Shown piece after piece: positions 48,167 through 63,791 of a stretch of DNA of 64,000 bases (position 1 is the first letter of the stretch; every line of letters begins with the position of its first letter). The DNA is from an uncultured Ruminiclostridium sp. (GTDB taxonomy: Bacteria > Bacillota > Clostridia > Oscillospirales > Ruminococcaceae), in NCBI GenBank assembly GCA_947630685.1, contig CANRII010000001.1:199-64198 (forward strand). The letters are read 5' to 3'. The notes under the pieces were generated by a model. That model was not told where the DNA came from, made no database searches, and saw nothing but the letters and a program-made list of their open reading frames with translations. Position numbers and translations under genes: made by a program.

Positions 48167-48791
48167 TTATATAAGTTTCATTACTTCCGCAGTCTTGCGG
48201 GCGATTTTCTCGCTGCCTTCTTTTGAAAAATGGACTCGATCACGATGGATCTCGCTAAACATAAGCGAATAAAGATCATTGACTTTCAGTTTATATTTTT
48301 CGGCGATCTTTTTTGCGATTTGATTGCGCTTTATTATTTCGTTATTGATTTTTTCATCCAGTTCAGATAAGTTACTCTGTTTAACAATAGAAGTAGTTAG
48401 TGCGATCGTCAAATCGGGAATATATCTCAAAACATAAGTAACCAATTTTTCATACGCTTTTTCAAACTCATCAATGGAATCGCTTTGAATTGCATTTCCA
48501 AATCCGTCAATGCCGTGTACGCCGATTTGAATCTGCGCTTTGTACTGACGGTACTCCTCATAGGAAAAGAATAGATCAAGCGTTTTATAAAACTTATCGT
48601 CAGAAATATTTGTAGTTGTCGCAAAAAAGTCTACCGGCTTTTTTGTTAACTGCGCAAGCGGCCCTCTGTACTCACGAGCAACCGAATCACCTATCAGCAG
48701 TATCCTGTCGGTGCGTTTTTCATTTGCATAGTCAAACCAGAAATTAAGCCATTCAACGTATTCTCTGCCTTTAATTATACCCCCCCCGCAT
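48167..48791 (-). pseudogene. SGNH/GDSL hydrolase-family gene lacking an in-frame start in the G8 state
   Basis: Open frame IKGREYVEW...RILLIGDSV...DRVH continues into track ORF 48167..48445. ATG 48791 is out of frame by one base across the run at 48780-48787. Confidence 0.75.
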
Positions 48792-51495
48792 TATTTTGGG
48801 GTTCCGCAGCAGACTGCATATTGGAAGCAGCGGCTTTTTCTTTAGCGTCTTTCTCGTTGATATCTATAACTGCTTCCTCTTTGAAATTTCTAACATCATA
48901 TTTATTTTTTCTTACATATTGTTGAAATAAATTCATTCTATTCTTGTCGGAAGTAACAAACACTTCCCATCTATCACTATACAAAGCGGCAATTGTCGGA
49001 AAATAACTTTGGCTTGCAATAATAACTTTTCCAAGGGCCATTAACTGAATATCCCTGTAACTTTCTTCTCCTTTATTTGAATCCACAAAAAACAACTTAT
49101 CTTTTTCGATCTTATCAATTCCCAACTGCTCTAAATTTAATTTACACCATTTTATGTCATCTGAGAAAATAAAGATTTTTTTGTTTAGATAATCATCGAT
49201 TTTCATTACCGATTGAATGGTTGATTTATAATATTCATTATCAACAGACACACCGGCTGTAACATAATCTCCTCGTCTTACATGCATGACAATAGCGTCA
49301 CATGACGTCATTTCATCAGCTAAACTAATTAGTTGTTCGCTTTCAAAAGGTGGAAATGCTATAAAATCACTCAACTTAAAATCATAATATTGCTTTAAGG
49401 TTTCTATTCTTAACAATAAATTGTAATACATGTGCGGGCTTTTGAATTCAATAAAATCTTTTTTGTTTTCCCCACATAAATAACACGGAGCTCCTTTAGC
49501 GTTTTTTTCATATCTTACATAATTAAAACTCTGTGTCATGTAAGTATATTTTTCTGATAATTTCAAATAGATTTTTTTGAACAATTGATTGCCATATTCT
49601 CGTATTGGCGTCAGTCTGGGTGATAGCTTCGAAGTTAATAAACTCATCGGTTCTTTAGCAAATTTATCGACCTCAAATCCGTTGAATGCAGAACACTTAG
49701 TCGTATCATAAATAACTTTTTTATGCGCATACTTTTCAATAATTTTTCCCATTACAAAATTGCACAGCTGATCGCCTAATCCTGCTTCTATATTAACTGT
49801 CACTATGTCAGGATCTAATAATTCCGTAAGATCCATAATTGGAATAAAGTCATTAATATCAGCAGGATCTTTGTTATCGCCTATAACAAATACAAACCTC
49901 TCATTTTTCAATAAGTCGCAATAATTTATAAAATACAAGCTTTCAACAAGCTCCTGCTTACTGTTAAATCTTAGATATGTCGGCTTGTTGCCATCTTTAT
50001 TTCTTGCCTTTTCAACATAATAGTCATAGCTGTATGTCAATGCGTCGGCGCTGTCTATAGAACAGATATAGCCGTCGGCGATAATTTTCTTATAATCAAG
50101 CTCTTTCGCATTAAATTCAAATTTCCTTATAGGCGTTTCGGAATTTGGATTCAACACGAGCCAGCAGTTATTTACCAAGGGCACATACACGTCACCATTA
50201 TCTTCCGTAAATTCTTTTACAGATATATACGGATACTCTTTAAGAAAAGCTATATTTTTCTCTTTGAATTTTCTTGCAGAGTTCACAGAAATACAATCGC
50301 TGTTGCTTAAAATATTAGAAACGATTTTTTTGTATTCTGCTGCATTTTCGCAATTGCTGCATAGCAAATAAACCGCAATAATATCGTTCAGCTCCAGCTT
50401 AAAATAACGGGTGTAAAGCTCGACCAGTTCAATATCAGCGGTAATTTTTTTACTTTGCACATCAACTGCGTATTCTGCAAGACGATATTTATTTTCAACA
50501 TCAAGAAATTGTCTGAGCTTTATTATATTATCAAAAAATTCACAAGTACCTGACTGAAGTTTGCTCAGCTTATCTACGTTGAGCATATTATCGTCAATAT
50601 ACTTCAAATGCTCCGCATTGTGAGAAATTATATCTTTTGATAGTCTTGAAAGCAAAGTCTTGAAAAAGTCGCTTGTATATCCGTAAAAATGCGGTTTATA
50701 TGCGTCTGTGTTTTTATTGACGATGATATCGTAGATCTCTTCAGCAACAGCCTTAGCCGAATCCGCGCTCATCTGGATATAAGGAAACCAACATTCAACA
50801 TATTTCGGCGGGATGTTATTACAATGTTCATTTACAACTAAGCAATGTGTTCTTTCGATAAAATAATTGTCTATCCGCTCCATCATCCCAACAAATTGTC
50901 CGGATAACTTTTCAAACACTCCGACGTCATGGTCGCTCATATAAAAACGCGAGCAATTTGAACGGATAAGAATAATATGATCCGGATCGTACTCTTTCAA
51001 GACGATATCAATAAATCTGTCATAATAATACTTCCAGTTGAACGAGCCTGTGAAAGGAAACGTTCTTCTTGTGAACCCGCCCTCGCTGTTTTTTATGGCG
51101 TTTCTTATTTCTTCGGTAGTATATTCGGAATAAACCATGTCTGCTTTTTCCAGAACAGGAAGTTCTATGCTGGAATTCATATAAATCAGATATTCTGATG
51201 TGTTGCTCAATCTAACCTCTTTGCTTCTGGGTTGAATATTGTAATTATCGGAAAAATTCTTTGGATCGTGCGACAATACCTTATCTAAATTTTTTCTTAT
51301 ATTAAGCAGTTCGTGTGGCTTCAAATCAGGCATATCGGAGTATTTCTGATATGCCTGATCAAACGTGCCTGTCATTGCTAAGGGGCTGCAGCCATTAATC
51401 ATACTTTCAGTCAATATGCCCATATTATTTAATTTTTTACTAACCGAATCAAGAAAACTGCCTATAATTTGTATTCTGTTTTTGTGACACGACAT
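48775..51495 (-). CDS. Large protein with C-terminal GT11 (alpha-1,2-fucosyltransferase-like) domain
   Basis: AGLGDQL, MHVRRGDYV, FIFSDDIKWC, DIQLM...SQSYF...AALY; about 570 aa unassigned N-terminal region. Confidence 0.82.
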   Translation of the reverse strand: MSCHKNRIQIIGSFLDSVSKKLNNMGILTESMINGCSPLAMTGTFDQAYQKYSDMPDLKPHELLNIRKNLDKVLSHDPKNFSDNYNIQPRSKEVRLSNTSEYLIYMNSSIELPVLEKADMVYSEYTTEEIRNAIKNSEGGFTRRTFPFTGSFNWKYYYDRFIDIVLKEYDPDHIILIRSNCSRFYMSDHDVGVFEKLSGQFVGMMERIDNYFIERTHCLVVNEHCNNIPPKYVECWFPYIQMSADSAKAVAEEIYDIIVNKNTDAYKPHFYGYTSDFFKTLLSRLSKDIISHNAEHLKYIDDNMLNVDKLSKLQSGTCEFFDNIIKLRQFLDVENKYRLAEYAVDVQSKKITADIELVELYTRYFKLELNDIIAVYLLCSNCENAAEYKKIVSNILSNSDCISVNSARKFKEKNIAFLKEYPYISVKEFTEDNGDVYVPLVNNCWLVLNPNSETPIRKFEFNAKELDYKKIIADGYICSIDSADALTYSYDYYVEKARNKDGNKPTYLRFNSKQELVESLYFINYCDLLKNERFVFVIGDNKDPADINDFIPIMDLTELLDPDIVTVNIEAGLGDQLCNFVMGKIIEKYAHKKVIYDTTKCSAFNGFEVDKFAKEPMSLLTSKLSPRLTPIREYGNQLFKKIYLKLSEKYTYMTQSFNYVRYEKNAKGAPCYLCGENKKDFIEFKSPHMYYNLLLRIETLKQYYDFKLSDFIAFPPFESEQLISLADEMTSCDAIVMHVRRGDYVTAGVSVDNEYYKSTIQSVMKIDDYLNKKIFIFSDDIKWCKLNLEQLGIDKIEKDKLFFVDSNKGEESYRDIQLMALGKVIIASQSYFPTIAALYSDRWEVFVTSDKNRMNLFQQYVRKNKYDVRNFKEEAVIDINEKDAKEKAAASNMQSAAEPQNNAGGV

Positions 51496-51600: not shown

Positions 51601-51993
51601 TCACATCATATCTATAAGTTTACCATGCTTTTCATATCGGCTGGTTCTGAAGATTCGATTTTCTTCGTCCACAAACACAACCTTCGGAGGATTATTTTTT
51701 ATTTCCTCCGGACTCATATCCGCATATGACATGATTATAACAAAGTCGCCTTTCTGACCGCAGCGTGCAGCCGCTCCGTTAAGACAAATAACACCGCTTC
51801 CGCGTTCTCCGGCAATCACATAAGTTTCGATCCTGCTACCGCTATTAATATTCACTATATGAACATGCTCATATTCCACTATTCCTGAAGCATCCATAAG
51901 GTCTTCATCAATAGTGATACTCCCTACATAATTAAGCTCTGCCTGTGTAATAACGGCACGGTGAATCTTGCTTTTTAATACAGAAATATTCAT
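51601..51993 (-). CDS. panD: Aspartate 1-decarboxylase
   Basis: [11 protein letters not shown]|SITID self-cleavage site, [16 protein letters not shown]. Confidence 0.95.
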
Positions 51994-52127
51994 TTCTCTT
52001 CCTCCATTTATTTTGTTTTTTTATTTCAACACCATATATGATATGGTGCGAATAAACCATAATACATCCGGGTTATAACCCTACATTATTGTTTAATGTC
52101 TCAGATGTTATTCTAAAACAGCTTATA

Positions 52128-54443
52128 CTATATAGAAGCCGTTTTTCTAATATCATCTAATTTCCCTTCAAGAGTTTGTACTTTCTCTTGCATTGTTTTG
52201 ACCAAATTTTTTTCTTTTCGAATATCATGTGGTATCCACGTGGTATCAATATATATAATGTCTCCATCGTCAACTTTACGAGAATACTTAAACGGTTTGT
52301 CATGAGTTATTGATTTTGTTTCGTTAAATACTATCTCGCCATTGACAATAAGCTTTTGAAAATCCATTTTTATAGGGATCCTGCTATTATCTGCATATTT
52401 AACATCCATCGTTCTTAAGAAAATATCAAATCTCCCGCTTTTTTTACAACGAAATATAATACTTATTGAGCCGGAACTTGACTGAATTATATAGCCGTTC
52501 CCATTTTTATTGAACCAAGTCGGTGAAGAAATTGACGCATTTGTATCTGATACTTTTATAAGCTCAATTCTGTTATCATCAGAATCAGAATTTTTTATAT
52601 CTATTCTTCCGGTAATATAAAAATCTATCAACTCGTGAAAACGTAGTGATGACCGACTTGTGCTGTAGTTTGGCTCGTCTTTATTATACTTAGCTGCGGT
52701 ATTTTTTATAAAATCCGCCGGTAATGAGGGGGTTGCTTTAGGCGATGAAATATCTTCAATTATATTACATATTGCAAGTGCCGCAAAAACGTTTCGCATC
52801 GGAAAATACGACCTTTTCTTAGAATCGTCGGAAATATAATTATATACTTCTTCGTTGTAATAAAGCAAAAATGTATTTTTCATTTCATTACTGTGAAAAG
52901 CGTCGCTTAACAATTGCTCAGGCAGCTTTGAGTCAAACTTTTTGACCTTAGCCATTTGAACAGCTTTTACATCTGTTTTTATACAACTGTTGTTTTGAAC
53001 ATCAACATAAGGAAAAGCTTTATTAACCGTTTTTACATTTTGAATTGTAGAGTCCTTAAATCCGCGATTACTGTCAAATTTAAAGTCAAGCAGCTTACTA
53101 CAATAACGATCCAATATTATAGCGTAAAGTGCACTCATATCATCTTTGTCCCGTGAAACATACAGCTTCAACTTTTGCAAATCTGAGTCTAAAAGCGGAG
53201 ATAAATAAAAAACATTTGAATAGTAATTTTCCACAGTCATCTTTCCAAAATGACTTCTGTTTCCTGTTTCACGCCATAAAATATTTGCTAAATTTTGAGG
53301 GTCTATAGATGCTCTTCCAAACGATTTGAATTTATCTCTGATTTCGCTGAAAGTTTTTTCAAATATGGTTTTTATAGATTCTCTGTATTTTTCAATATCA
53401 TCAAAGCGATACTGCAAACCGAAATTTATTAGTTTTTCTATGAAAAATGTTTCATTTTTACACCAATACACACGATCTCTTACGCATTCTCCTCCAAAGC
53501 CCGAGAAACTGTATTTAGGTTTTTTATAACGAAACATATGAAAATGATTTTCCTTATGAAAACATGCTTGCATATACCAAGAAATATTAAGAGCATCTTC
53601 CAAACTGTAATTATCCGCTTCTGCAGAAAAAGTTTGATTGTTCAAACCAAAACCAAAATATTTAGAAATCTGTGAGGCGATTTCATAATCTTCAGTATGA
53701 GTATGTAAGCCGTCATTTAAGGATTTAACAAACATTTTATTCAAATCCACGCCTGAATTTAATGCTAACGCAAATACTACTCTGGAGTCGAATCCGCCCG
53801 TTAATTCAAATTTTATATCTTCGCCGTTTTCCGCAAGACTTTTTATTATTCCTATCCATTTTCTGTACCAATTATCAAGTATTGATATTCCCTCTTCAGA
53901 GTCAAGCTCAACGGTGTTTTCTTTATAGTCTACACAATACCAGTCAATAGATTTATCTGAAATATTTAATTCAACAACTGCGCTGCGATCCAAAAGTGAT
54001 ATCTCATTTACCATGGTTTCGGAATAAACATAAGAGCTCAGATTGGATGTAAGCATAAAATTCGCATAATTTCGATTAAAAGTTATTTTTCGGGATGCCT
54101 TTATATAATCAATAAGATATATAAACGAATTGCTTAAGGCAAAATAACTCTCATCTTTGTATAAATACAAACCGTAAGAACCAATAAAATCTTGTTTTAT
54201 TGTGATTTTATTGCCGTCACGTTTTATATACATATATGCTCCGCTGCCATTTGGCTCAGCACCTGCAAGCGATTCAAATTTATCGGTTATCACATTATTA
54301 ATAACGCAGAAACCGTATAGTTTGCTCGTTACATTCTGCATATTGTCAGAATCAATTACAAAAAATGCCTCGTTCGGATCAAAATTCCTAGTATTGACAT
54401 TTTCATTTGTTGATCCTTTATTCAAAAAATTCATTTCAACCAC
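52128..54443 (-). CDS. Asparagine-synthetase-like ATP pyrophosphatase domain protein (no N-terminal Cys)
   Basis: DFIGSYGLY Ntn-like segment, LTGGFDSR PP-loop, SGFGGECVR, SPLLD; C-terminal beta-rich domain and short coiled coil. Confidence 0.65.
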   Translation of the reverse strand: MVEMNFLNKGSTNENVNTRNFDPNEAFFVIDSDNMQNVTSKLYGFCVINNVITDKFESLAGAEPNGSGAYMYIKRDGNKITIKQDFIGSYGLYLYKDESYFALSNSFIYLIDYIKASRKITFNRNYANFMLTSNLSSYVYSETMVNEISLLDRSAVVELNISDKSIDWYCVDYKENTVELDSEEGISILDNWYRKWIGIIKSLAENGEDIKFELTGGFDSRVVFALALNSGVDLNKMFVKSLNDGLHTHTEDYEIASQISKYFGFGLNNQTFSAEADNYSLEDALNISWYMQACFHKENHFHMFRYKKPKYSFSGFGGECVRDRVYWCKNETFFIEKLINFGLQYRFDDIEKYRESIKTIFEKTFSEIRDKFKSFGRASIDPQNLANILWRETGNRSHFGKMTVENYYSNVFYLSPLLDSDLQKLKLYVSRDKDDMSALYAIILDRYCSKLLDFKFDSNRGFKDSTIQNVKTVNKAFPYVDVQNNSCIKTDVKAVQMAKVKKFDSKLPEQLLSDAFHSNEMKNTFLLYYNEEVYNYISDDSKKRSYFPMRNVFAALAICNIIEDISSPKATPSLPADFIKNTAAKYNKDEPNYSTSRSSLRFHELIDFYITGRIDIKNSDSDDNRIELIKVSDTNASISSPTWFNKNGNGYIIQSSSGSISIIFRCKKSGRFDIFLRTMDVKYADNSRIPIKMDFQKLIVNGEIVFNETKSITHDKPFKYSRKVDDGDIIYIDTTWIPHDIRKEKNLVKTMQEKVQTLEGKLDDIRKTASI

Positions 54444-54531: not shown

Positions 54532-55374
54532 TTACAGAGTACACAAAAATTTCAGATCCTCCGACGTTATTATATAAGTAAATTTGTTTCCCTTATATTC
54601 ACCTGTACTATATTTTATATTGTTTTTCTCAAGGACTGCCAGCATCTCTTTTATTGTCTGCTTTTCGCCGGGGCGGTTTGAATCATCCATAAAAATTACA
54701 AAGCTATCCTCAAGGCAACTCGGTAAAACGCGCAGAATATCTACACGGGCATATATTTTCGCATAACCTCCGAACGGTCCATCAATTGAAATAAGATCGA
54801 ATTTTTTGCCTTTTAATGCCTCTTCAAATCCCTCGTAAGCATAAACTTCGGTGTCGTTCTTATAAACCGATTTATCAGTCAGCGGTAACAACTGAATGCG
54901 TATATTATCCGGAAGGTGATTAGCTTGCTTGTAAAAGTCTATCCACTTCTCGTCGTGCTCCACAACGGTATGAGATATGCTCTTATTTTTAGCGGCATAC
55001 TGAGAAATCATATTCGTTGTCTGTCCCAAACCAAGTTCCAAAATACTATGCGGACGAAACTCGTCCAATGTTCGGTAGAGGGCGTACAGGAAAGGATATC
55101 CCGCTGCCCATCTGCCGGGTGAAAACTTTTTGTTCTCCAACCAATCTGAACGAGCTATTGTGCTGTTAAAGACCTCTGCCCAAACTATCTCGCCGGAGTT
55201 TCTGCTGGCGTCATTGCTGAGCCTCATGATTTCTTTCGCGTTTTTCAAGAGCATTTGTATCTGTTCTTGTTGTTCTTTTTGCAACGCGTCCATATGCTCC
55301 ACAATTTGTTTTAATTCGGATACCTGCTCGGTAAGCTCGGATATTAACCGTTTATCTGTTGTTTCCATTGGCAA
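54532..55374 (-). CDS. Coiled-coil plus class I SAM-dependent methyltransferase-like protein
   Basis: N-terminal heptads LTEQVSELKQIVEHMDALQKEQQEQIQML; ILELGLGQTT, VVEHD, DLISIDGP, MDDSNR. Confidence 0.65.
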   Translation of the reverse strand: MPMETTDKRLISELTEQVSELKQIVEHMDALQKEQQEQIQMLLKNAKEIMRLSNDASRNSGEIVWAEVFNSTIARSDWLENKKFSPGRWAAGYPFLYALYRTLDEFRPHSILELGLGQTTNMISQYAAKNKSISHTVVEHDEKWIDFYKQANHLPDNIRIQLLPLTDKSVYKNDTEVYAYEGFEEALKGKKFDLISIDGPFGGYAKIYARVDILRVLPSCLEDSFVIFMDDSNRPGEKQTIKEMLAVLEKNNIKYSTGEYKGNKFTYIITSEDLKFLCTL

Positions 55375-55449: not shown

Positions 55450-58400
55450 CTACTTTTTATGTTGTTCCAGAGCTGCGATTTTTTTTGCCTGCTCTGCAAC
55501 TTTAGTTTCAAGGGTTTTTCTTTCTTTTCTGTTCCACGTTAATTTTTCGATAACTTCTTTTTCCGTTCGAATTTCGGTGTCGGAAACCTTTATTTTTCTG
55601 TCGGGGCTGCTGAGCTCAGCAACTTTTTGGCTTAGGGCTTTTAGCTTGTAATCAAAGTAAGCGGTACAGCCATCATGATCTTGTGCTTCGGAAATATTGA
55701 TAAATTGACTGTATTCCGATTTATTATCATAAAAATTCTTACCATAATCCCTTATATCAAGGTTTTCAAACCACTCTTCTCGCAGCTTATCAAACAGCAT
55801 GATCGCCTGTTCCTGAGGGAGCGTATTGAAATTCCATAAACAGCTGTGCAAAGCATAATTAACAAACGACCTTCTGTATCTGTCATATACTCCCATATTG
55901 ACAAGCTCACCGCGAACCTTGTTTAACGCGTAGTAGAAGCATTGCCATGAGAGATATCGGGTAGATGAAAGAGAATCGGGATTGTTTCTCCTCTGATTGT
56001 ACAGGCTTTCTTTCACAATAGTTATTGAATCAGCCTTAAAAAGAGAAGCAAACACGAAATACATATCATTTGTCGTTCTCTGTTCTTGGAACAAAAGTCC
56101 GTTATCAAGTACGAAATCTTTTCTGTAAAGCTTATCCCATGCCCATCCCATAAAGACTTTGAATTCATTGCCGTTAATTTCGGAAATATTGAAAACATCC
56201 TCTTTGGGGAGCATTTCGGGTCTTATCGAAAATGTGCAGGGTTTTCTTTCACGAGTCTGATAGTCAAATAGGCTTGATGCAAATATGCAAATATCTGCAT
56301 TTCGGCTTGTGATCGCCGTATATGTCTTTTTAAGCAGATCACGCTCAACGTAATCGTCCGCGTCGGGAAAATAAAGATACTCGCCGTTAGCCGCCGCGAT
56401 CCCTTTATTTCTCGCCACTCCTGCTCCGCCGTTTTCCTGGTCAATAATGACAACACGATCATCAAGAAGAGCATATTCCGTTAAAATCTCCAACGAATTA
56501 TCCGTTGAGCCGTCATTTACACAGATAAGCTCTATATCATCAAGCGTCTGATCCAAAAAGCTGTCAAGGCACTCACACAAATACTTGCCTACATTGTAAA
56601 CCGGAAGGATAACAGATACCTTAACACCGCCGTTTCTCTTTATTGAATAGAAATAATCCTCCGGATCGCGTATAATATAATTCAGCTCATTCCACTGCCG
56701 GTCTGTAAACGCGCTTTTATCAAGTCCGTTGGCGTTTTTTTCTTCGATGAATATATCGTGAATATAATTTATATATTCCTGTTTTGCATTTATATCAATA
56801 TCAGATAATAAGGACATATAAGCATCGTATTTTCTTTCCTGATAAGAGGATAAGAATCTTTCCTTGGCGACAGGCTTAGCGTCAAGATAATCAAGAATAT
56901 GAGCATATTCCGACTGTATGCTTTTGCATTTATTAACATAAGATGCTTTATCAGTTTTAACGCATCTGTTAAAGTAAAAAGGCTTATCGATAAACATACA
57001 TTTTTCAGCTTCTGCAAACACCTTGAATATAAACACGCTGTCGGCAGGAAGTGCATCGGCATCTTCGGTATACCGAATTAGTCTTTTCTTCAAAAACAAT
57101 GTACGATAAACGGCGCTTAATCCGTTTTTGCCGTATTTTAAGCAATGTGTGTAAATGTAAGGATGAATAACTCTGTTATAATCACTTGATCCATCGCACA
57201 GCTTTACATCTCGATTTCTAGATATCGCAAAATTGCTGAAATCTGACATAACAAAATCCAGATCGTTCTTAACAGCCCGACTGTAAAGTGTTTCAAGCAT
57301 ACCGGGAAGAATATAGTCTTTTGCATTTATTATGGTGACATATTCACCTGAAGCCATGTCTATTCCCAGATTAACAGTCCGACCGTAATCTTTATCCGAT
57401 TTATCAATAACCTTAACGCTCGATTCAACAGCGGCAATTTCTTTTAACACATCAAGAGAATTATCGGTTGAACCGTAATTTATGCATATAACTTCGACAT
57501 CGCCCAATGTCTGCCCGATTATACTATTTATGCATTTTCTGACATAGCTTTCCGCATTATAAACAGGAACAATGACTGAAACTTTAGCTTTGTCTTTAGA
57601 TCCTTTGCAGTTAATACGCTCTTTTATTAAACTTTTTTCAACCGTATTCCTAACAACCGGCATACTTCTAAACGCATTCTCATCAAATCTACTGCCATAG
57701 ACATATATGTATTCTTCCTCGTCAAGACGGATGATTTCGCTGTATTCGGCGTACCAGGATCTGACAGAATAGTCGCTATAAGTATTTTTTATAAAATCAA
57801 TATCCGACGAAATATTCTCGAAGAAACGCTTAGTAGGTTCAAATACAATATGAAAACGCTTATCCGATATTGCTTTGAATTCATCAAGTATGCATCTTAT
57901 TTCTCCTTGATAAACATCTGCTTTGACCTTGCTTTCTTCGTCACGGATCAACTCTGAAACAGCCTTATAGGACTCAAAACGTTCCAGGAAGCGTTTTGTG
58001 CATTGTTCGGAAAAAACATTATCCTTTTCTGATACACTAAAAACAAGCTCTTCATTAAGGAAAAGCGTTTTCTCGGCATTTAACAAAGCATTTACACACG
58101 GGAGCCAATCAAAGGAATAATCAAAATTGCCGAAATGAAAATTAATTTCATCCGAATAATCTTTGCGCAGCATAACTCCGGAAAGCGTCATATTAATTTT
58201 AAGGAATAAATCGCTGTTGTATCTGAAATTAATAAGTTTTCCGGTTTTATCAACGGCAACATCGGACATTTCTTTAATTCCGGTATTGAGTCTGTAACTT
58301 GTTTTTACGATATCAGCACCGATTTTTTCAGCGCTGCTGTACATAGTTTTAAGCGCATTGGGATTGAGATACTCATCGGGCTCGATGAAAATATAATACT

Positions 58401-61400
58401 TACCAAAGACATATTCAAGAGCCTTGTTCCTCGCTTCTCCGCTGCTTAATCTTTCTGCTGTGTCGATCATTAAAATGCGGCTGTCATTAACCGCATATTT
58501 TTTTATAATGTCAACAGAACTGTCATCAGAGCAGTTATTTACACATATAATTTCCAACTTCGTAAAAGTCTGACGCAATATACTCTCAATACACTTTTTT
58601 ATTGTCGAAGCATTATTATTAAAAGTAACTATAACAGAAACCTGAATTTTCTTACTCAAGTCATCATCAACGAATTTGTCCGGATCCTCGATCATTCGTT
58701 CTATCTTATCCCATTCGTTATCATTAAAAAGGCTTCTGTCCAGCTCATTATTATCCATAGCCTGCCGATATTCGTCAGCAAAATGCCTTGCGAAATCGTG
58801 TTTGTATATATTATTTATTCTGTTGTAATTAAAAAGATAATTTCTGAATCTTGAAATATGATATATCCCAATAAATTTTTCAAAAATATATCGGTTCTGT
58901 TCAAGAATAGTCCTCACATGGCTGTATTCATCCTTCATGCACCATACCTTAGTAGGACTCATAACCGAGGAATTCGGATTGTCGCGTCTGTTCATATAAT
59001 ACGGATTGTTACAGAACATTGCTCTTTTTGCGAAAATAAATGTCTGAAACCAAAAACCGTTATCTTGAAAAGAGGCTCCGGGAGTTTCGTTGTGCCTTAT
59101 TCCATGCTGCTCAAGAAAACTTCTCTTATATATACCGCTCCATGTGTTGAGGGTATATCTGAAACAATCAGGATGATTGCCGGGTGTCATAACAAAGTTA
59201 TAATTTTTGTCATCACCGGCAATTTTGTTGTACATTAACACAAACTGTCCAAATTCATCATGAGTAAACCTGTTGAAATCAGCCTTGATAAAGTCGAGAT
59301 CGTTTTCAACTGCGATATTATACAGATCTCCGAACATATTTACATCAACAAAATCATCGGGCTCGATTATGCCGATATACTCGCCTTTAGCCTTATCAAT
59401 GCCGTAATTCATAGCCATGCCGTAACCGCCGTTTTCCTTATCGATGATTAAAATGCGGTCGTCCTCGGCGGCATACTCCTTGATTATCTCAAGGCAGTTA
59501 TCTGTCGAACCGTCGTTCACAACAATAATTTCGATATCGTCAAGCGTCTGATTAACAGCGCTGTCAAGACATATCCTCATATACTGTTCCACGTTATATG
59601 TAGGTATAATTATAGAAACCTTGGGTGCGGCGTTTTTGTCTATCTCTTTTCTTTCGGATATTATTTGACGCATTTCATCGTATAAGTCCTGATTGACAAA
59701 AAGCTCCCGCGGCGATGAGGCGATATCCAGAGCATCGAAAAATTTGCGCTTCAGACTTTGGCGGATAAGATCGCGAAAATGCTCGCGATAATTATGCATA
59801 TTCCATATTGAAAAATCGATCGCCCAGTTCACAAAGCTCTTTTTATATTCTTTATAGATCTTATGGTCGATAAGATAATTCTTCAGAGCAAGCAGCGCGT
59901 CATAGAAATTATGCCACAAATATTCGATATCCTTGGAAAGAGTTTTTGTGTGATTTACTCTTTGATGCACAAGGATCCTATCCAATGTTGTGATCTTATC
60001 CGCGGCGGTATAAGCCGATAATGTAAACAGCATATCGTTGCAGGAAAGCACGCTCTGAAATTCAAGTTTATTCTCCATAACAAACGAACGCTTGTACAGC
60101 TTATCCCAGGCTGTACAGCTTGTCATGGTAAAGATCACATCTGCGCAGTCGCGGCGGGAAAAAGGACGCTGCTCCGGCATAACTTCGAGCTTGAGCGTCC
60201 ACGGGCATTCGTGAAACTGCTTTGACGGTTCGTCAAACTGATCACATCTGAAAGCGCATATCTCGGAATCCGTATCTTTAATAACTGTATACGCCGCTTC
60301 CAGCATATCCGGCTCGAAAAAGTCGTCTGCGTCAAGGAATGAAAGATATTCTCCTTCCGCAAGCTCTATACCGGCATTTCGGCTTTCGCCCGCGTTTGAA
60401 TGTTCTTTATCAATAACAATAATCCTATCGTCGCGCGACTCATATTCCTTGAGGATATCAGCGGTGCTGTCTGTAGAACCGTCGTTTACGCAAATTATCT
60501 GTATCTCCCCAAGCGTCTGGCCGCATACGCTGTCAAGGCATTGACGAATGTACTTTTCCCCGTTATATACGGGTATAATAACGGAGACCCTGACCTCGCT
60601 CATTATCCTTTGCAAACGCTTATATTCATGATCGTACAAAAAATAGGACGGCGCGTTATTCAGAATATCCAGCTTTTCAAAATATTCTTCCCTGCATTTT
60701 TGCTTTATTTCTCTGCTAAACTTCTTATCCAGCGTGTCGATATTCCATAAGCTGAAATTCAGCGCCCAGTTTACAAAGCTGTGTCTGAAAATATCATATA
60801 CTCCGTCGGTAATAAGCTGCTCCTTTAACGCCATAAGCGCAAGGTAAAAGTTGTCGCACGACAATTCACGCGTTACGGATAAAGTATTGTATGCGTTTAT
60901 CCTCCTGTGGGCAAACAGCGTATCCATTACATAAATGCTTTTTGCTTTAGAATAAAGGTAAAATACAAAAAACATATCGTTGGAGGTCCGTATCTCCTGA
61001 AAACGAGCATTGTTTTCTTCTACAAAATCTCTCCTGAACAGCTTGTCCCACGCCCAGCCGCAGCCTATATTGAATATCCTGTCAGGTATGTCCATAGCGC
61101 CGAACGGATTGATATCCGGCAGTACGTCCTCTTTCACGCTGTAATCGCAAGGTATAAACTTATGCTCTTGTTCATCATAGAAATCAGACTTAAACACAAC
61201 GATATCCGCGTCCTCGACTTTTGCGGCATAGTACGCCTTTTTCAGCATATCGGGTTCAAAAAAATCATCTGAGTCCAAAACAGACAGATACTCGCCCTTA
61301 GCCGCCGGCAAGCCTTTGTTGCGTGCCGCTCCCGCGCCGGCGTGCTCCTGCCGGATTATCTGTATCCTGCTGTCCTTTAGCCGATATTCTTCAAGTATTT

Positions 61401-61590
61401 GAGGCGATCGATCCGTTGAGCCGTCATCGACGCAAATAATTTCAATATTATTGAGCGTTTGTCCGATAACGCTTTCCAGGCACTGCTTCAAATATGCTTC
61501 CACATTATATACGGCAATTATGACAGATACCATCGGCGAATTATTCGCGGCCGACCCTGACATATTTGTATTGGCAGATTTATCATTCAT
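55450..61590 (-). CDS. Six-domain GT2 glycosyltransferase (2046 aa)
   Basis: Six VS[VI]I-type GT-A starts. DxD-region motifs in order: LDSDD, LDADD, IEPDD, IEPDE, INAKD, PDADD. C-terminal coiled coil. Confidence 0.9.
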   Translation of the reverse strand: MNDKSANTNMSGSAANNSPMVSVIIAVYNVEAYLKQCLESVIGQTLNNIEIICVDDGSTDRSPQILEEYRLKDSRIQIIRQEHAGAGAARNKGLPAAKGEYLSVLDSDDFFEPDMLKKAYYAAKVEDADIVVFKSDFYDEQEHKFIPCDYSVKEDVLPDINPFGAMDIPDRIFNIGCGWAWDKLFRRDFVEENNARFQEIRTSNDMFFVFYLYSKAKSIYVMDTLFAHRRINAYNTLSVTRELSCDNFYLALMALKEQLITDGVYDIFRHSFVNWALNFSLWNIDTLDKKFSREIKQKCREEYFEKLDILNNAPSYFLYDHEYKRLQRIMSEVRVSVIIPVYNGEKYIRQCLDSVCGQTLGEIQIICVNDGSTDSTADILKEYESRDDRIIVIDKEHSNAGESRNAGIELAEGEYLSFLDADDFFEPDMLEAAYTVIKDTDSEICAFRCDQFDEPSKQFHECPWTLKLEVMPEQRPFSRRDCADVIFTMTSCTAWDKLYKRSFVMENKLEFQSVLSCNDMLFTLSAYTAADKITTLDRILVHQRVNHTKTLSKDIEYLWHNFYDALLALKNYLIDHKIYKEYKKSFVNWAIDFSIWNMHNYREHFRDLIRQSLKRKFFDALDIASSPRELFVNQDLYDEMRQIISERKEIDKNAAPKVSIIIPTYNVEQYMRICLDSAVNQTLDDIEIIVVNDGSTDNCLEIIKEYAAEDDRILIIDKENGGYGMAMNYGIDKAKGEYIGIIEPDDFVDVNMFGDLYNIAVENDLDFIKADFNRFTHDEFGQFVLMYNKIAGDDKNYNFVMTPGNHPDCFRYTLNTWSGIYKRSFLEQHGIRHNETPGASFQDNGFWFQTFIFAKRAMFCNNPYYMNRRDNPNSSVMSPTKVWCMKDEYSHVRTILEQNRYIFEKFIGIYHISRFRNYLFNYNRINNIYKHDFARHFADEYRQAMDNNELDRSLFNDNEWDKIERMIEDPDKFVDDDLSKKIQVSVIVTFNNNASTIKKCIESILRQTFTKLEIICVNNCSDDSSVDIIKKYAVNDSRILMIDTAERLSSGEARNKALEYVFGKYYIFIEPDEYLNPNALKTMYSSAEKIGADIVKTSYRLNTGIKEMSDVAVDKTGKLINFRYNSDLFLKINMTLSGVMLRKDYSDEINFHFGNFDYSFDWLPCVNALLNAEKTLFLNEELVFSVSEKDNVFSEQCTKRFLERFESYKAVSELIRDEESKVKADVYQGEIRCILDEFKAISDKRFHIVFEPTKRFFENISSDIDFIKNTYSDYSVRSWYAEYSEIIRLDEEEYIYVYGSRFDENAFRSMPVVRNTVEKSLIKERINCKGSKDKAKVSVIVPVYNAESYVRKCINSIIGQTLGDVEVICINYGSTDNSLDVLKEIAAVESSVKVIDKSDKDYGRTVNLGIDMASGEYVTIINAKDYILPGMLETLYSRAVKNDLDFVMSDFSNFAISRNRDVKLCDGSSDYNRVIHPYIYTHCLKYGKNGLSAVYRTLFLKKRLIRYTEDADALPADSVFIFKVFAEAEKCMFIDKPFYFNRCVKTDKASYVNKCKSIQSEYAHILDYLDAKPVAKERFLSSYQERKYDAYMSLLSDIDINAKQEYINYIHDIFIEEKNANGLDKSAFTDRQWNELNYIIRDPEDYFYSIKRNGGVKVSVILPVYNVGKYLCECLDSFLDQTLDDIELICVNDGSTDNSLEILTEYALLDDRVVIIDQENGGAGVARNKGIAAANGEYLYFPDADDYVERDLLKKTYTAITSRNADICIFASSLFDYQTRERKPCTFSIRPEMLPKEDVFNISEINGNEFKVFMGWAWDKLYRKDFVLDNGLLFQEQRTTNDMYFVFASLFKADSITIVKESLYNQRRNNPDSLSSTRYLSWQCFYYALNKVRGELVNMGVYDRYRRSFVNYALHSCLWNFNTLPQEQAIMLFDKLREEWFENLDIRDYGKNFYDNKSEYSQFINISEAQDHDGCTAYFDYKLKALSQKVAELSSPDRKIKVSDTEIRTEKEVIEKLTWNRKERKTLETKVAEQAKKIAALEQHKK

Positions 61591-61621: not shown

Positions 61622-62836
61622 TCAATCTCTCTTGAAAATGTCTTTTGTATACACCTTTTCAGCTACGTCGTCCAGACAGTTGTCATATCTGTTTGCGATT
61701 ATTATATCGCAGACTCGCTTGAATTTTGAAATATCGTTTATTATCGGAGTACCCTCAAATACAGCATTGTCGCTGATCGTAGGTTCATAAATAACCAGCT
61801 TTGCTCCCGCCGCTTTAAGGCGTCTCATAATGCCCTGAACCGAGCTGTGACGAAAATTGTCGCTGTTGCTCTTCATTATAAGTCTGAATATTCCTACGGT
61901 TGGCGGCCGATCGGACGGCGCTTTGTTATATCCCGACTTTTCAAGTATACGTTGAGCGATAAAATCTTTCCTCGTTCGGTTGCTCTCAACTATTGCTCCG
62001 ATAAGATTTTCCGGAACATCATGATAATTTGCAAGCAATTGCTTGGTATCTTTCGGCAGGCAATACCCGCCGTATCCAAAGCTGGGATTATTATAAAAAT
62101 CCCCTATTCTCGGATCAAGGCAGACTCCCGATATTATCTGTCTGCTGTCAAGGCCTTTCATTTCCGCATAAGTGTCCAGCTCGTTGAAATAGCTCACTCT
62201 AAGCGCAAGGTATGTATTTGCAAATAATTTTACAGCTTCCGCTTCTGCCGAGCCCATATGAAGGACAGGTATATTTTCTTTTATCGCGCCTTCCTGCATA
62301 AGCTCCGAATAAATTTTGGCCGCTTTGACAAGATCCTGATTTGTAATATCATAACCGATGATTATTCTCGACGGATAAAGATTATCATATAAAGCTTTGG
62401 ATTCTCTCAGAAATTCAGGGCTGAACATTATTTTTTCATATCCCGTTTTTTCCTTTAGCTGCTTTGTATATCCGACAGGAATTGTAGATTTGATGATTAT
62501 AACGGCGTTTTTATTGCAGCTCAATATTTTTTCTGCCGTGTCTTCAATGCACGATGTATCAAAATAATTTTTCTCAGGATCATAATTCGTCGGGACTGCA
62601 ACAATGATCATCTCTGCATCGGAATAAGCCGCGTCAGCATCAACTGTCGCAATCAGATTTAATTCCTTTTCCCGAAAATATGCTTCAATTTCTTTATCTG
62701 CAATAGGGGATCTTCTGTTGTTGACCATGTCAACTTTATCCTTGACAACATCAACCGCGATAACTTCATTCTTCTGGGCAAGCAATGTAGCAATTGACAG
62801 TCCCACATATCCAAGTCCCACAACAACAGTTTTCAT
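61622..62836 (-). CDS. ugd: UDP-glucose 6-dehydrogenase
   Basis: [48 protein letters not shown]. Confidence 0.93.
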
Positions 62837-62879: not shown

Positions 62880-63791
62880 TTACATTTTTTCTTTAATAAT
62901 ATAATCCATTGTCCTTTTTATCCCCTCTTCAAAGGGTATTTCGGATCTAAACCCCGTATCTTTTTCTGTAGCTGAGCAGTCAAAGCATTCTAACGGAAGA
63001 TTCACACCGGTAAACGGTACATCTCCAAAAAGAAATTCTTTGTGCGGCGCAACAGTTGATTTTATCTTCAAAAGAAATTCTTTGAGCGGTTTAGCGTCCG
63101 AACTGCCTATAAGATAATGGTAAAACGGCTTTCCGTTCTCGCCGATCAGACGAAACGCCCTCGCCACATCTGTTATATATACAAAATCATAATTCTGAGT
63201 CCCTGATGTAAATTCAAGAGGTTCATCGGCAAGTATTTTTCGCAAAGTAGAATTTATCAGTCTAGGTGAATTTTCTCCCGCGCCATAAGCGTTGGTAATT
63301 TCAGCCCATACCGTTTCTATTCCGATTTGAGCGCCTTTTATCATACATAATGCTCTGGCAGCAAGCTTTGCCGCACCGTATGTATAATTTATACCGGGCT
63401 TGTTTCCTTGTTCGGTAACCGCATAATAGGTCTCATACTCCATTATGCTGCCCGCTCCGACAAAGCGTTTACAGCCTATTTCTTCGGCTTGTTGAAGAGC
63501 GTCTATTGTCCACCCGGTATTTTTGATCTGAACAGAAGCGTCACCTCTTGTTTTTCCGTTCATTCCGAACCATGCTAAGTGGTAATACAGGTCAGGCTTA
63601 AGGTCTGAAAGTCTTTTTGCCACGGCGGACATATTATTCATATCAAATTGGATAAAAACGATTTTATCATCAACGGGAATATTGTTATTGTACAAATCAA
63701 GAGCAATGACCTCGATGCCGTTATTTACGAGCTCCTGCACCAAGGCGCTTCCCACAAATCCGTTCGCACCGGTAACGATCGCTCTTTTCAT
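62880..63791 (-). CDS. NAD-dependent epimerase/dehydratase (CDP-paratose/abequose-synthase-like reductase)
   Basis: GANGFVGS, HLAW, GAGSIMEY, YGAAK; directly downstream of the CDP-glucose dehydratase. Confidence 0.75.
   Translation of the reverse strand: MKRAIVTGANGFVGSALVQELVNNGIEVIALDLYNNNIPVDDKIVFIQFDMNNMSAVAKRLSDLKPDLYYHLAWFGMNGKTRGDASVQIKNTGWTIDALQQAEEIGCKRFVGAGSIMEYETYYAVTEQGNKPGINYTYGAAKLAARALCMIKGAQIGIETVWAEITNAYGAGENSPRLINSTLRKILADEPLEFTSGTQNYDFVYITDVARAFRLIGENGKPFYHYLIGSSDAKPLKEFLLKIKSTVAPHKEFLFGDVPFTGVNLPLECFDCSATEKDTGFRSEIPFEEGIKRTMDYIIKEKM

Follow-up and report, generated by a model that had tools for sequence, protein, structure and literature searches.

In this study, we analyse a 64,000-nucleotide stretch of DNA (the window) from an uncultured Ruminiclostridium sp. 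(assembly GCA_947630685.1, contig CANRII010000001.1, positions 199 to 64,198 of the forward strand), in which panD, the gene for aspartate 1-decarboxylase, adjoins a gene encoding a 771-amino-acid (aa) PP-loop protein of the AsnB fold. Both genes, together with the nucleotide-sugar dehydrogenase gene ugd, are carried on one strand of a single glycan locus, a set of genes comparable with that of uronate amidation modules. A first-pass annotation made from the sequence alone had proposed that PanD supplies beta-alanine to the neighbouring protein, a putative ligase, for amide linkage to a uronic acid of the surface glycan. We show that the window panD is a second copy of the gene in its genome, and that its pairing with the ligase gene is more than chance, because a relative of the ligase (P0007) has the two genes fused. 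The window is interpreted here as containing a beta-alanine decoration module, in a segment of a surface-glycan locus that has low GC and was acquired horizontally, and to this reading we assign a probability of about 0.5.

An accessory panD in a glycan locus

The window panD (51601-51993, minus strand) encodes a protein of 130 aa, which matched PF02261 in Pfam with an E value of 2.4e-53 and scored 167.2 bits against the NCBIfam equivalog TIGR00223, for which the cut-off is 106. In the numbering of the E. coli and M. tuberculosis enzymes, its translation contains the Gly24-Ser25 self-cleavage site and keeps K9, H11, R54, T57, Y58 and N72. A ribosome-binding site (GGAGG) is located 8 nt upstream of the gene, which, judged from its sequence, is intact.

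A search of the genome assembly (2.25 Mb, 97% complete) revealed a second panD on contig C30 (G000 C30:13973-18945), within a row of panE-like, panB, panC, panD, coaBC and coaX genes. This row holds the sole panC of the genome, and none was found within the window, in agreement with the first-pass annotation. The window copy is therefore not the only panD of the genome, which removes the main objection that the first-pass annotation had foreseen to its own proposal, and it would be dispensable for CoA synthesis because panB, panC, panD and coaBC are present elsewhere. The two PanDs are 57% identical and belong to the same family, the window copy scoring above the equivalog cut-off and having all the catalytic residues. 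The window gene differs from the housekeeping one in being a second copy, situated outside the pan operon in a glycan locus, and in its foreign base composition (GC 0.40 and GC at third codon positions, GC3, 0.36, against a GC of 0.55 for the pan operon and a GC3 of 0.64 for the housekeeping copy). The adjoining ligase gene has a GC of 0.32 and a GC3 of 0.28. A further difference is that the relative of the window PanD in P0007 is fused to a ligase.

The closest stand-alone PanDs to the window copy (80-87% identity) are of Ruminococcus/Oscillospiraceae type and, where examined, are encoded by ordinary panB-panC-panD genes. Taken together, the second panD, the 57% identity, the foreign GC and the Ruminococcus-type nearest stand-alone relatives indicate that the window panD is a spare, imported copy of the normal enzyme.

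The housekeeping pan row has itself a GC of 0.52-0.56 and a GC3 of 0.60-0.68, compared with a genome GC of 0.485. panD is rare in this lineage, being present in 2 of 25 genomes of the genus (that is, in only 1 of the 24 others) and in none of 16 other genomes of the order. The pantothenate pathway may thus be an acquisition in this lineage as well.

The adjoining gene encodes an AsnB-fold protein

The ligase gene (52128-54443, minus strand) comprises 771 codons when read from a GTG, while the copy in the protein collection begins at the ATG at 54434 and has 768 aa. No match to Pfam was obtained even at E<=10, nothing significant was found in NCBIfam (best E 0.011, 14 bits, at the PP-loop), and a phmmer search of PDB sequences gave no match. 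A profile built from 60 sequences of the ligase family detected in PDB only a sub-threshold MnmA PP-loop (E 0.08), and when the family profile was compared by hhalign with the genome's own AsnB, the alignment was confined to 22 columns of the PP-loop region, with a probability of 2%.

An AlphaFold (AF2) model computed from the family alignment had a predicted local distance difference test score (pLDDT) of 91 and a predicted template modelling score (pTM) of 0.80. When this model was compared with PDB using Foldseek, all 22 chains matched at E<=1e-3 belonged to the AsnB superfamily, among them TsnB9 (7e-8), carbapenam synthetase CarA, beta-lactam synthetase, E. coli AsnB and human ASNS. The alignments covered 440-640 columns and both domains, at 9-15% identity. 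The kinship is visible only by fold search because sequence profiles are blind to it; at the level of fold and motif only, the modelled protein falls unambiguously within the AsnB superfamily.

The PP-loop ELTGGFDSR (53781-53807, minus strand) corresponds to DLSGGFDSR in the family consensus, so that the core reads TGGFDS in the window ligase and SGGFDS in the family. G213, G214, D216 and R218 are invariant in 60 sequences, and the loop aligns with that of MnmA and with SGGLDSS of the genome's own AsnB. The model and the conserved motifs QDFxGxYGLY and ALSNSF delimit an N-terminal domain resembling the N-terminal nucleophile (Ntn) fold (53925-54377, minus strand), and GxGGE, RxxHFGK and PLLD are further motifs conserved in the family. 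The N-terminus, MNFLNKGSTNEN, provides about 20 residues before the first strand, which starts near residue 25. No N-terminal Cys nucleophile is present in the window ligase and none is conserved there across the family, so that the protein cannot be a glutamine-dependent amidotransferase. The first-pass description of an intact panD adjoining a Cys-less AsnB homologue was thus borne out, by PF02261 and TIGR00223 for the decarboxylase and at the level of fold and motif for its neighbour.

The AF2 secondary structure also predicts a C-terminal beta-sandwich (52230-52610, minus strand) of lectin or carbohydrate-binding-module (CBM) type, which Foldseek matched weakly to CBM35 and 4g2a; a terminal helix (52134-52205, minus strand) comes after it. 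In two relatives of 1000-1070 aa (P0020 and P0069) the beta-sandwich is doubled, and the copies are separated and followed by long coiled coils.

Linkage of panD and the ligase gene

The ligase gene and panD are separated by 134 bp, in which a scan of the minus strand detected nothing resembling a terminator. The association is closer in P0007, an in-frame ligase-PanD fusion whose ligase part is 47% identical to the window ligase. Contigs of two samples, which differ in the genes around it, carry this fusion, and in both it comes immediately after ugd. With 90% identity, the PanD domain of P0007 is nearer to the window PanD than is any stand-alone PanD listed from a 5.8-billion-protein collection, and in the PanD tree the pair are sisters (support 94/80). 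In a tree of 45 ligase sequences, the window protein and P0007 fall within one 8-member subclade, which also includes a ugd-adjacent member and a fusion to a family 2 glycosyltransferase (GT2).

The seven-member PanD subclade to which the window PanD and the PanD domain of P0007 belong contains three more members, P0286, P0264 and P0245, that are encoded in glycan loci from which panBC is absent. Encoded next to them are giant GT2/GT1 proteins, Pfam-less proteins of 506-514 aa, and polysaccharide pyruvyl-transferase (PS_pyruv_trans) proteins, some of which have ferredoxin and FrhB-like domains. Pyruvyl transferases introduce a further kind of carboxylate into glycans. A single clean clade of glycan PanDs was considered and rejected, for P0296, the sister of the glycan-type P0245, is encoded by a housekeeping panBCD gene. 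Because this housekeeping member lies within the subclade, recruitment of PanD to glycan loci is judged to be recent and may have been repeated, and the enzyme itself is unspecialised. Scanning of metagenome contigs with PanD returned 80 loci, 61 of them adjoining panC and none adjoining a ligase family, and yielded no further glycan-type copies.

The linkage of panD to the ligase is, on these comparisons, real but narrow. Co-occurrence of the two genes, which the first-pass annotation had made a test of its proposal, is seen in the P0007 fusion and is accompanied by related PanDs in other glycan loci; it does not extend to the family at large, since panD is absent from all 75 other ligase loci inspected.

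Several observations were made on the neighbours of the glycan-type PanDs. The 506-514-aa Pfam-less family, of which 39 members were found (e.g. L095:3281-4801 and L099:7870-9414), adjoins both these PanDs and the pyruvyl-transferase/ferredoxin/FrhB-like fusion proteins. Its members share an invariant GVDS motif and a cluster of Cys residues (HPC...NC...CxKC). A model of a 506-aa member (pLDDT 94) gave no significant fold match in PDB, and hhalign comparison with the ligase family returned a probability of 2.5%; we do not claim it as a PP-loop ligase. Directly upstream of one glycan-type panD lies a gene for a 744-aa protein (L097:2657-4891), whose C-terminal half is a pyruvyl transferase and whose N-terminal half has a PP-loop-like FFSGGVDATS and a CxxCxKC motif. 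This protein may represent a second kind of fusion that both installs and activates a carboxylate.

Proposed beta-alanine amidation

From these components we infer a chemistry, a direction of the amide bond, an acceptor residue and an action on the glycan chain rather than on UDP-glucuronic acid (UDP-GlcA). PanD would decarboxylate L-aspartate to beta-alanine. The 771-aa ligase, predicted to be cytoplasmic and to have an AsnB fold from which the glutaminase nucleophile has been lost, would adenylate a carboxylate with ATP at its PP-loop, and an external amine would attack the acyl-AMP. The carboxylate is proposed to be that of a glucuronate, or derived uronate, residue already on the nascent glycan, and the amine to be beta-alanine, so that the product would be an N-(uronoyl)-beta-alanine amide. 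The ligase would be kept on the glycan chain by its C-terminal beta-sandwich. We judge it probable that the ligase receives its substrate from PanD in order to decorate a glycan in some way; for the specific uronoyl-beta-alanine product, we put the odds at about even.

The likely source of the glycan carboxylate is ugd (61622-62836, minus strand), which the first-pass annotation had correctly placed in the locus and for which profile searches gave UDP-glucose 6-dehydrogenase as the best match. At the P0007 and P0006 loci, too, a ugd gene immediately precedes the ligase. Carboxylate-creating steps adjoin the ligase family in two forms, ugd and pyruvyl transfer, and the ligase relatives include fusions to GT2 (P0010), to GT8, GT1 and DUF1796 (P0139) and to a polysaccharide pyruvyl transferase (P0162). 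These fusions to GT2, to GT8 plus GT1 and to a pyruvyl transferase place the ligase family on the assembly lines of glycans in the cytoplasm. The lectin-like domain, the glycosyltransferase fusions and the analogy with Campylobacter jejuni described below lead us to expect that the ligase acts on the nascent chain and not on UDP-GlcA.

Comparison with characterised systems

In the HS:2 capsule locus of C. jejuni, ugd (Cj1441), a decarboxylase (Cj1436) and a transaminase (Cj1437) supply the glucuronic acid and the amine, and Cj1438, in which an ATP-dependent amidoligase domain is fused to a GT2 domain, amidates glucuronic acid at its C6 carboxylate after its transfer to the chain (PMC11800397). 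This module, which also includes Cj1435, has in common with the window a ugd gene, a locus-encoded decarboxylase making the amine and an ATP-dependent ligase for the carboxylate, and the glycosyltransferase fusion of Cj1438 has its counterparts in P0010 and P0139. The differences are that the window ligase is of the AsnB/PP-loop fold, with AMP and PPi as its expected by-products, that the amine would be beta-alanine from the pyruvoyl-dependent PanD and not ethanolamine-P or serinol-P from pyridoxal phosphate (PLP) enzymes, that no phosphatase step would be needed, and that the hosts are gut Clostridia and not Campylobacter. The C-terminal domain of Cj1438 has the ATP-grasp fold, and homology between it and the window ligase is not expected because the latter has the AsnB fold.

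PdmN of pradimicin biosynthesis, a Cys-less AsnB homologue, joins D-Ala to a polyketide carboxylate (bioRxiv 10.1101/2025.10.30.685158). It has in common with the window ligase the absence of the N-terminal Cys from an AsnB-family enzyme, and its pairing of a free amino acid as amine with a scaffold carboxylate is the one proposed here. PdmN is recognisable as an asparagine synthetase by sequence, whereas the window ligase has no PF00733 match, shows about 10-15% identity to its fold matches, carries an extra beta-sandwich and is found in a glycan rather than a polyketide context. Beta-lactam synthetase, CarA and TsnB9 (PDB 1mbz, 1q15, 7ylz) share the two-domain AsnB fold and the PP-loop, and by comparison with the model their acyl-adenylate chemistry, with a nucleophile other than glutamine-derived ammonia, may be likened to that of the window ligase. 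These enzymes act on precursors of small-molecule antibiotics or inhibitors, through intramolecular cyclisation or hydroxylamine transfer, and have neither a lectin-like domain nor a glycan context.

Glycan amidation with a locus-encoded amine supply is thus already known, as are Cys-less AsnB ligases. What is new is the combination of the two, beta-alanine as the proposed amine, and a large family of AsnB-fold proteins, without a Pfam match, that gut bacteria and methanogens encode in their glycan loci.

Alternative explanations

A number of results weigh against beta-alanine amidation of a uronic acid. Our literature search found no published report of a beta-alanine-bearing bacterial glycan and nothing relevant on AsnB-type uronate amidation. 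By tblastn, panD was found within 10 kb of none of the 75 ligase-family loci from GTDB, and only 9 of the 75 have ugd within 10 kb. Three genomes of the same genus have the ligase and no panD anywhere in the genome. The window ligase and P0007 are not sisters in the ligase tree, and the four relatives closer to the window protein (P0002-P0005) are without panD. A Pfam census of 140 neighbours from about 30 ligase loci showed no conserved partner, only scattered GT2, acyltransferase-3 and GNAT domains. A general use of beta-alanine by the whole ligase family was accordingly rejected on the 0/75 count; given this absence and the panD-less carriers of the ligase within the genus, beta-alanine can only be a substrate in a small ligase subclade, and the family at large would use other amines.

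The uronate itself is also in question. The 303-aa extended short-chain dehydrogenase/reductase (SDR) encoded beside ugd (62880-63791, minus strand) scored equally against UDP-GlcA 4-epimerases (MoeE5, 6zl6) and UDP-GlcA decarboxylases, and a decarboxylase would remove the carboxylate. Whether the glycan keeps a uronic acid depends on the function of this SDR, whose active-site region (GSIMEY...YTYGAAK) is unusual.

The ligase might work in the reverse orientation, adenylating beta-alanine (or aspartate before its decarboxylation) for attack by an amino sugar of the glycan, which would give an N-beta-alanyl sugar with a free amine and, in combination with glucuronate, a zwitterionic glycan. 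The chemistry of the top fold matches speaks for this: in the substrates of AsnB, beta-lactam synthetase and carbapenam synthetase, the carboxylate that is adenylated stands two carbons away from an amino group, the same geometry is found in beta-alanine, and beta-alanine could therefore be the activated acid, another point against the uronoyl amide. A source of the free amino sugar is, however, not evident, as no aminotransferase or sugar deacetylase that would provide it was recognised in the locus, where the DegT-family open reading frame (ORF) scored best as an RfbH dehydrase. In addition, a ligase relative is fused to a pyruvyl transferase and related PanDs adjoin such proteins, which points to a glycan carboxylate as the partner, and ugd is near or directly before the ligase in two panD-linked loci and in the P0006 locus. 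We regard the reverse orientation as unlikely.

The two genes might also be neighbours without a functional connection, the ligase using ammonia or another common amine and panD hitch-hiking and adding to the supply of beta-alanine and CoA. The 0/75 count, the panD-less ligase genomes and the 134-bp gap would fit such an arrangement, and where only 2 of 25 genomes of the genus have panD, any copy might be selected for CoA synthesis. Against it stand the complete housekeeping panBCD-coaBC operon already in the genome, the in-frame fusion in two samples with differing neighbour genes, the finding that the two ligase-linked PanDs are each other's closest relatives, and the three further members of that PanD subclade whose glycan loci lack panBC; we consider a meaningless adjacency improbable. 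Still less weight is given to another user of beta-alanine in the locus, with the AsnB-fold protein performing an unrelated amidation. One candidate would be the N-terminal part, about 700 residues, of a 906-aa family 11 glycosyltransferase (GT11) protein, which starts 105 bp after panD and is mostly without a family or sequence match in Pfam and PDB searches. The remaining glycan-type panD loci do have different Pfam-less neighbours and not this ligase, but in P0007 the fusion partner of PanD is the AsnB-fold ligase and not a homologue of the 906-aa protein, which tblastn did not find in that locus.

Beta-alanine decoration through the AsnB-fold ligase thus retains, of the evidence for the original proposal, the spare panD, the Cys-less fold, the P0007 fusion after ugd and the recurrent glycan PanDs, and loses any generality for the ligase family. 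A wider scheme can be put forward tentatively, and we would sooner bet against it than for it. The Pfam-less AsnB-fold family could be a general, hitherto unrecognised glycan carboxylate amide ligase whose amine varies by subclade, one subclade having captured an Oscillospiraceae-type PanD to give beta-alanine-amidated surface glycans. In P0007, self-cleavage would then leave the 24-residue beta-chain of PanD on the ligase, tethering the PanD oligomer non-covalently, so that beta-alanine would be made at the ligase.

Amide decorations of uronic acids alter surface charge, antigenicity and recognition by phages and lectins, and in very few systems have the enzymes responsible been identified. 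If beta-alanine amidation is correct, a large and unannotated protein family, carried by gut bacteria and methanogens, acquires a function that can be tested, beta-alanine is added to the known glycan substituents, and PanD, usually a pure marker of the CoA pathway, is seen to be recruitable for surface chemistry. A practical consequence for metabolic reconstruction is that pantothenate prototrophy should not be called from a second panD that lies outside panBC. The fusion of ligase and PanD in turn gives biochemical work an easy point of entry.

Distribution of the ligase family

The ligase family comprises at least 1,437 representative clusters (50% identity; E<=1e-3), from gut and rumen Firmicutes, Spirochaetes, Bacteroidota, Melainabacteria, Proteobacteria and the archaeal genera Methanobrevibacter and Methanosphaera. 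The two methanogen genera account for about 24 of the 75 GTDB loci. Methanogen loci (L017, L021, L023, L027, L028, L030, L031, L033, L035, L036 and others) often occur as two copies per genome, and the remaining loci come from at least six phyla of gut and rumen bacteria. Such a distribution suggests that a glycan-modifying gene has spread horizontally between the domains of life within gut ecosystems.

Two of the closest relatives of the window ligase, P0004 and P0003, are encoded by lone genes (in the regions L083:7279-8766 and L086:3144-6128). Their neighbours are an APC-family permease of amino-acid/ethanolamine type, and a GltS-like symporter with an amidohydrolase. Uptake may replace amine synthesis at these loci, or the transporters may be there by coincidence.

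Organisation of the surrounding locus

By ORF and domain reading, the glycan locus is a single one, occupying the minus strand from roughly 40.5 kb onwards to the last position of the window. GC is 0.32-0.38 over 48-60 kb, compared with about 0.49 genome-wide. In order of position, the locus begins at about 40.5 kb with the GDP-heptose genes gmhA, hddA and hddC-gmhB (minus strand). These are followed, on the same strand, by a GDP-mannose-dehydratase-like gene, genes for two Fcl-like reductases, an RfbH-like PLP enzyme and a cupin, and then by the gene for the 906-aa protein (48775-51495, minus strand), which adjoins panD downstream and has its GT11 domain at the C-terminus. On the other side of the ligase gene are the genes for a 280-aa protein (54532-55374, minus strand) and for a 2046-aa protein with six GT2 domains in Pfam (55450-61590, minus strand), the latter assigned to glycan assembly, after which come ugd and the SDR gene.

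The 280-aa protein has a coiled-coil N-terminus and a class-I methyltransferase-like domain, with a Methyltransf_24 match (E 0.0026) that is under the cut-off of that family and an S-adenosylmethionine (SAM)-methyltransferase-like motif, LELGLGQTT. Its gene is present in 3 of the 75 ligase-family loci and adjoins the ligase in L082. In rabbit-gut relatives the protein is fused at the C-terminus of the ligase. Fusion was seen in sequence in P0008, is deduced from the 1001-aa length in P0009 and P0012, and is judged likewise by length for a 1003-aa frame in a genome of the same genus (G005, C18:33375-35549). The 280-aa protein may methylate the product of the ligase or cap the chain.

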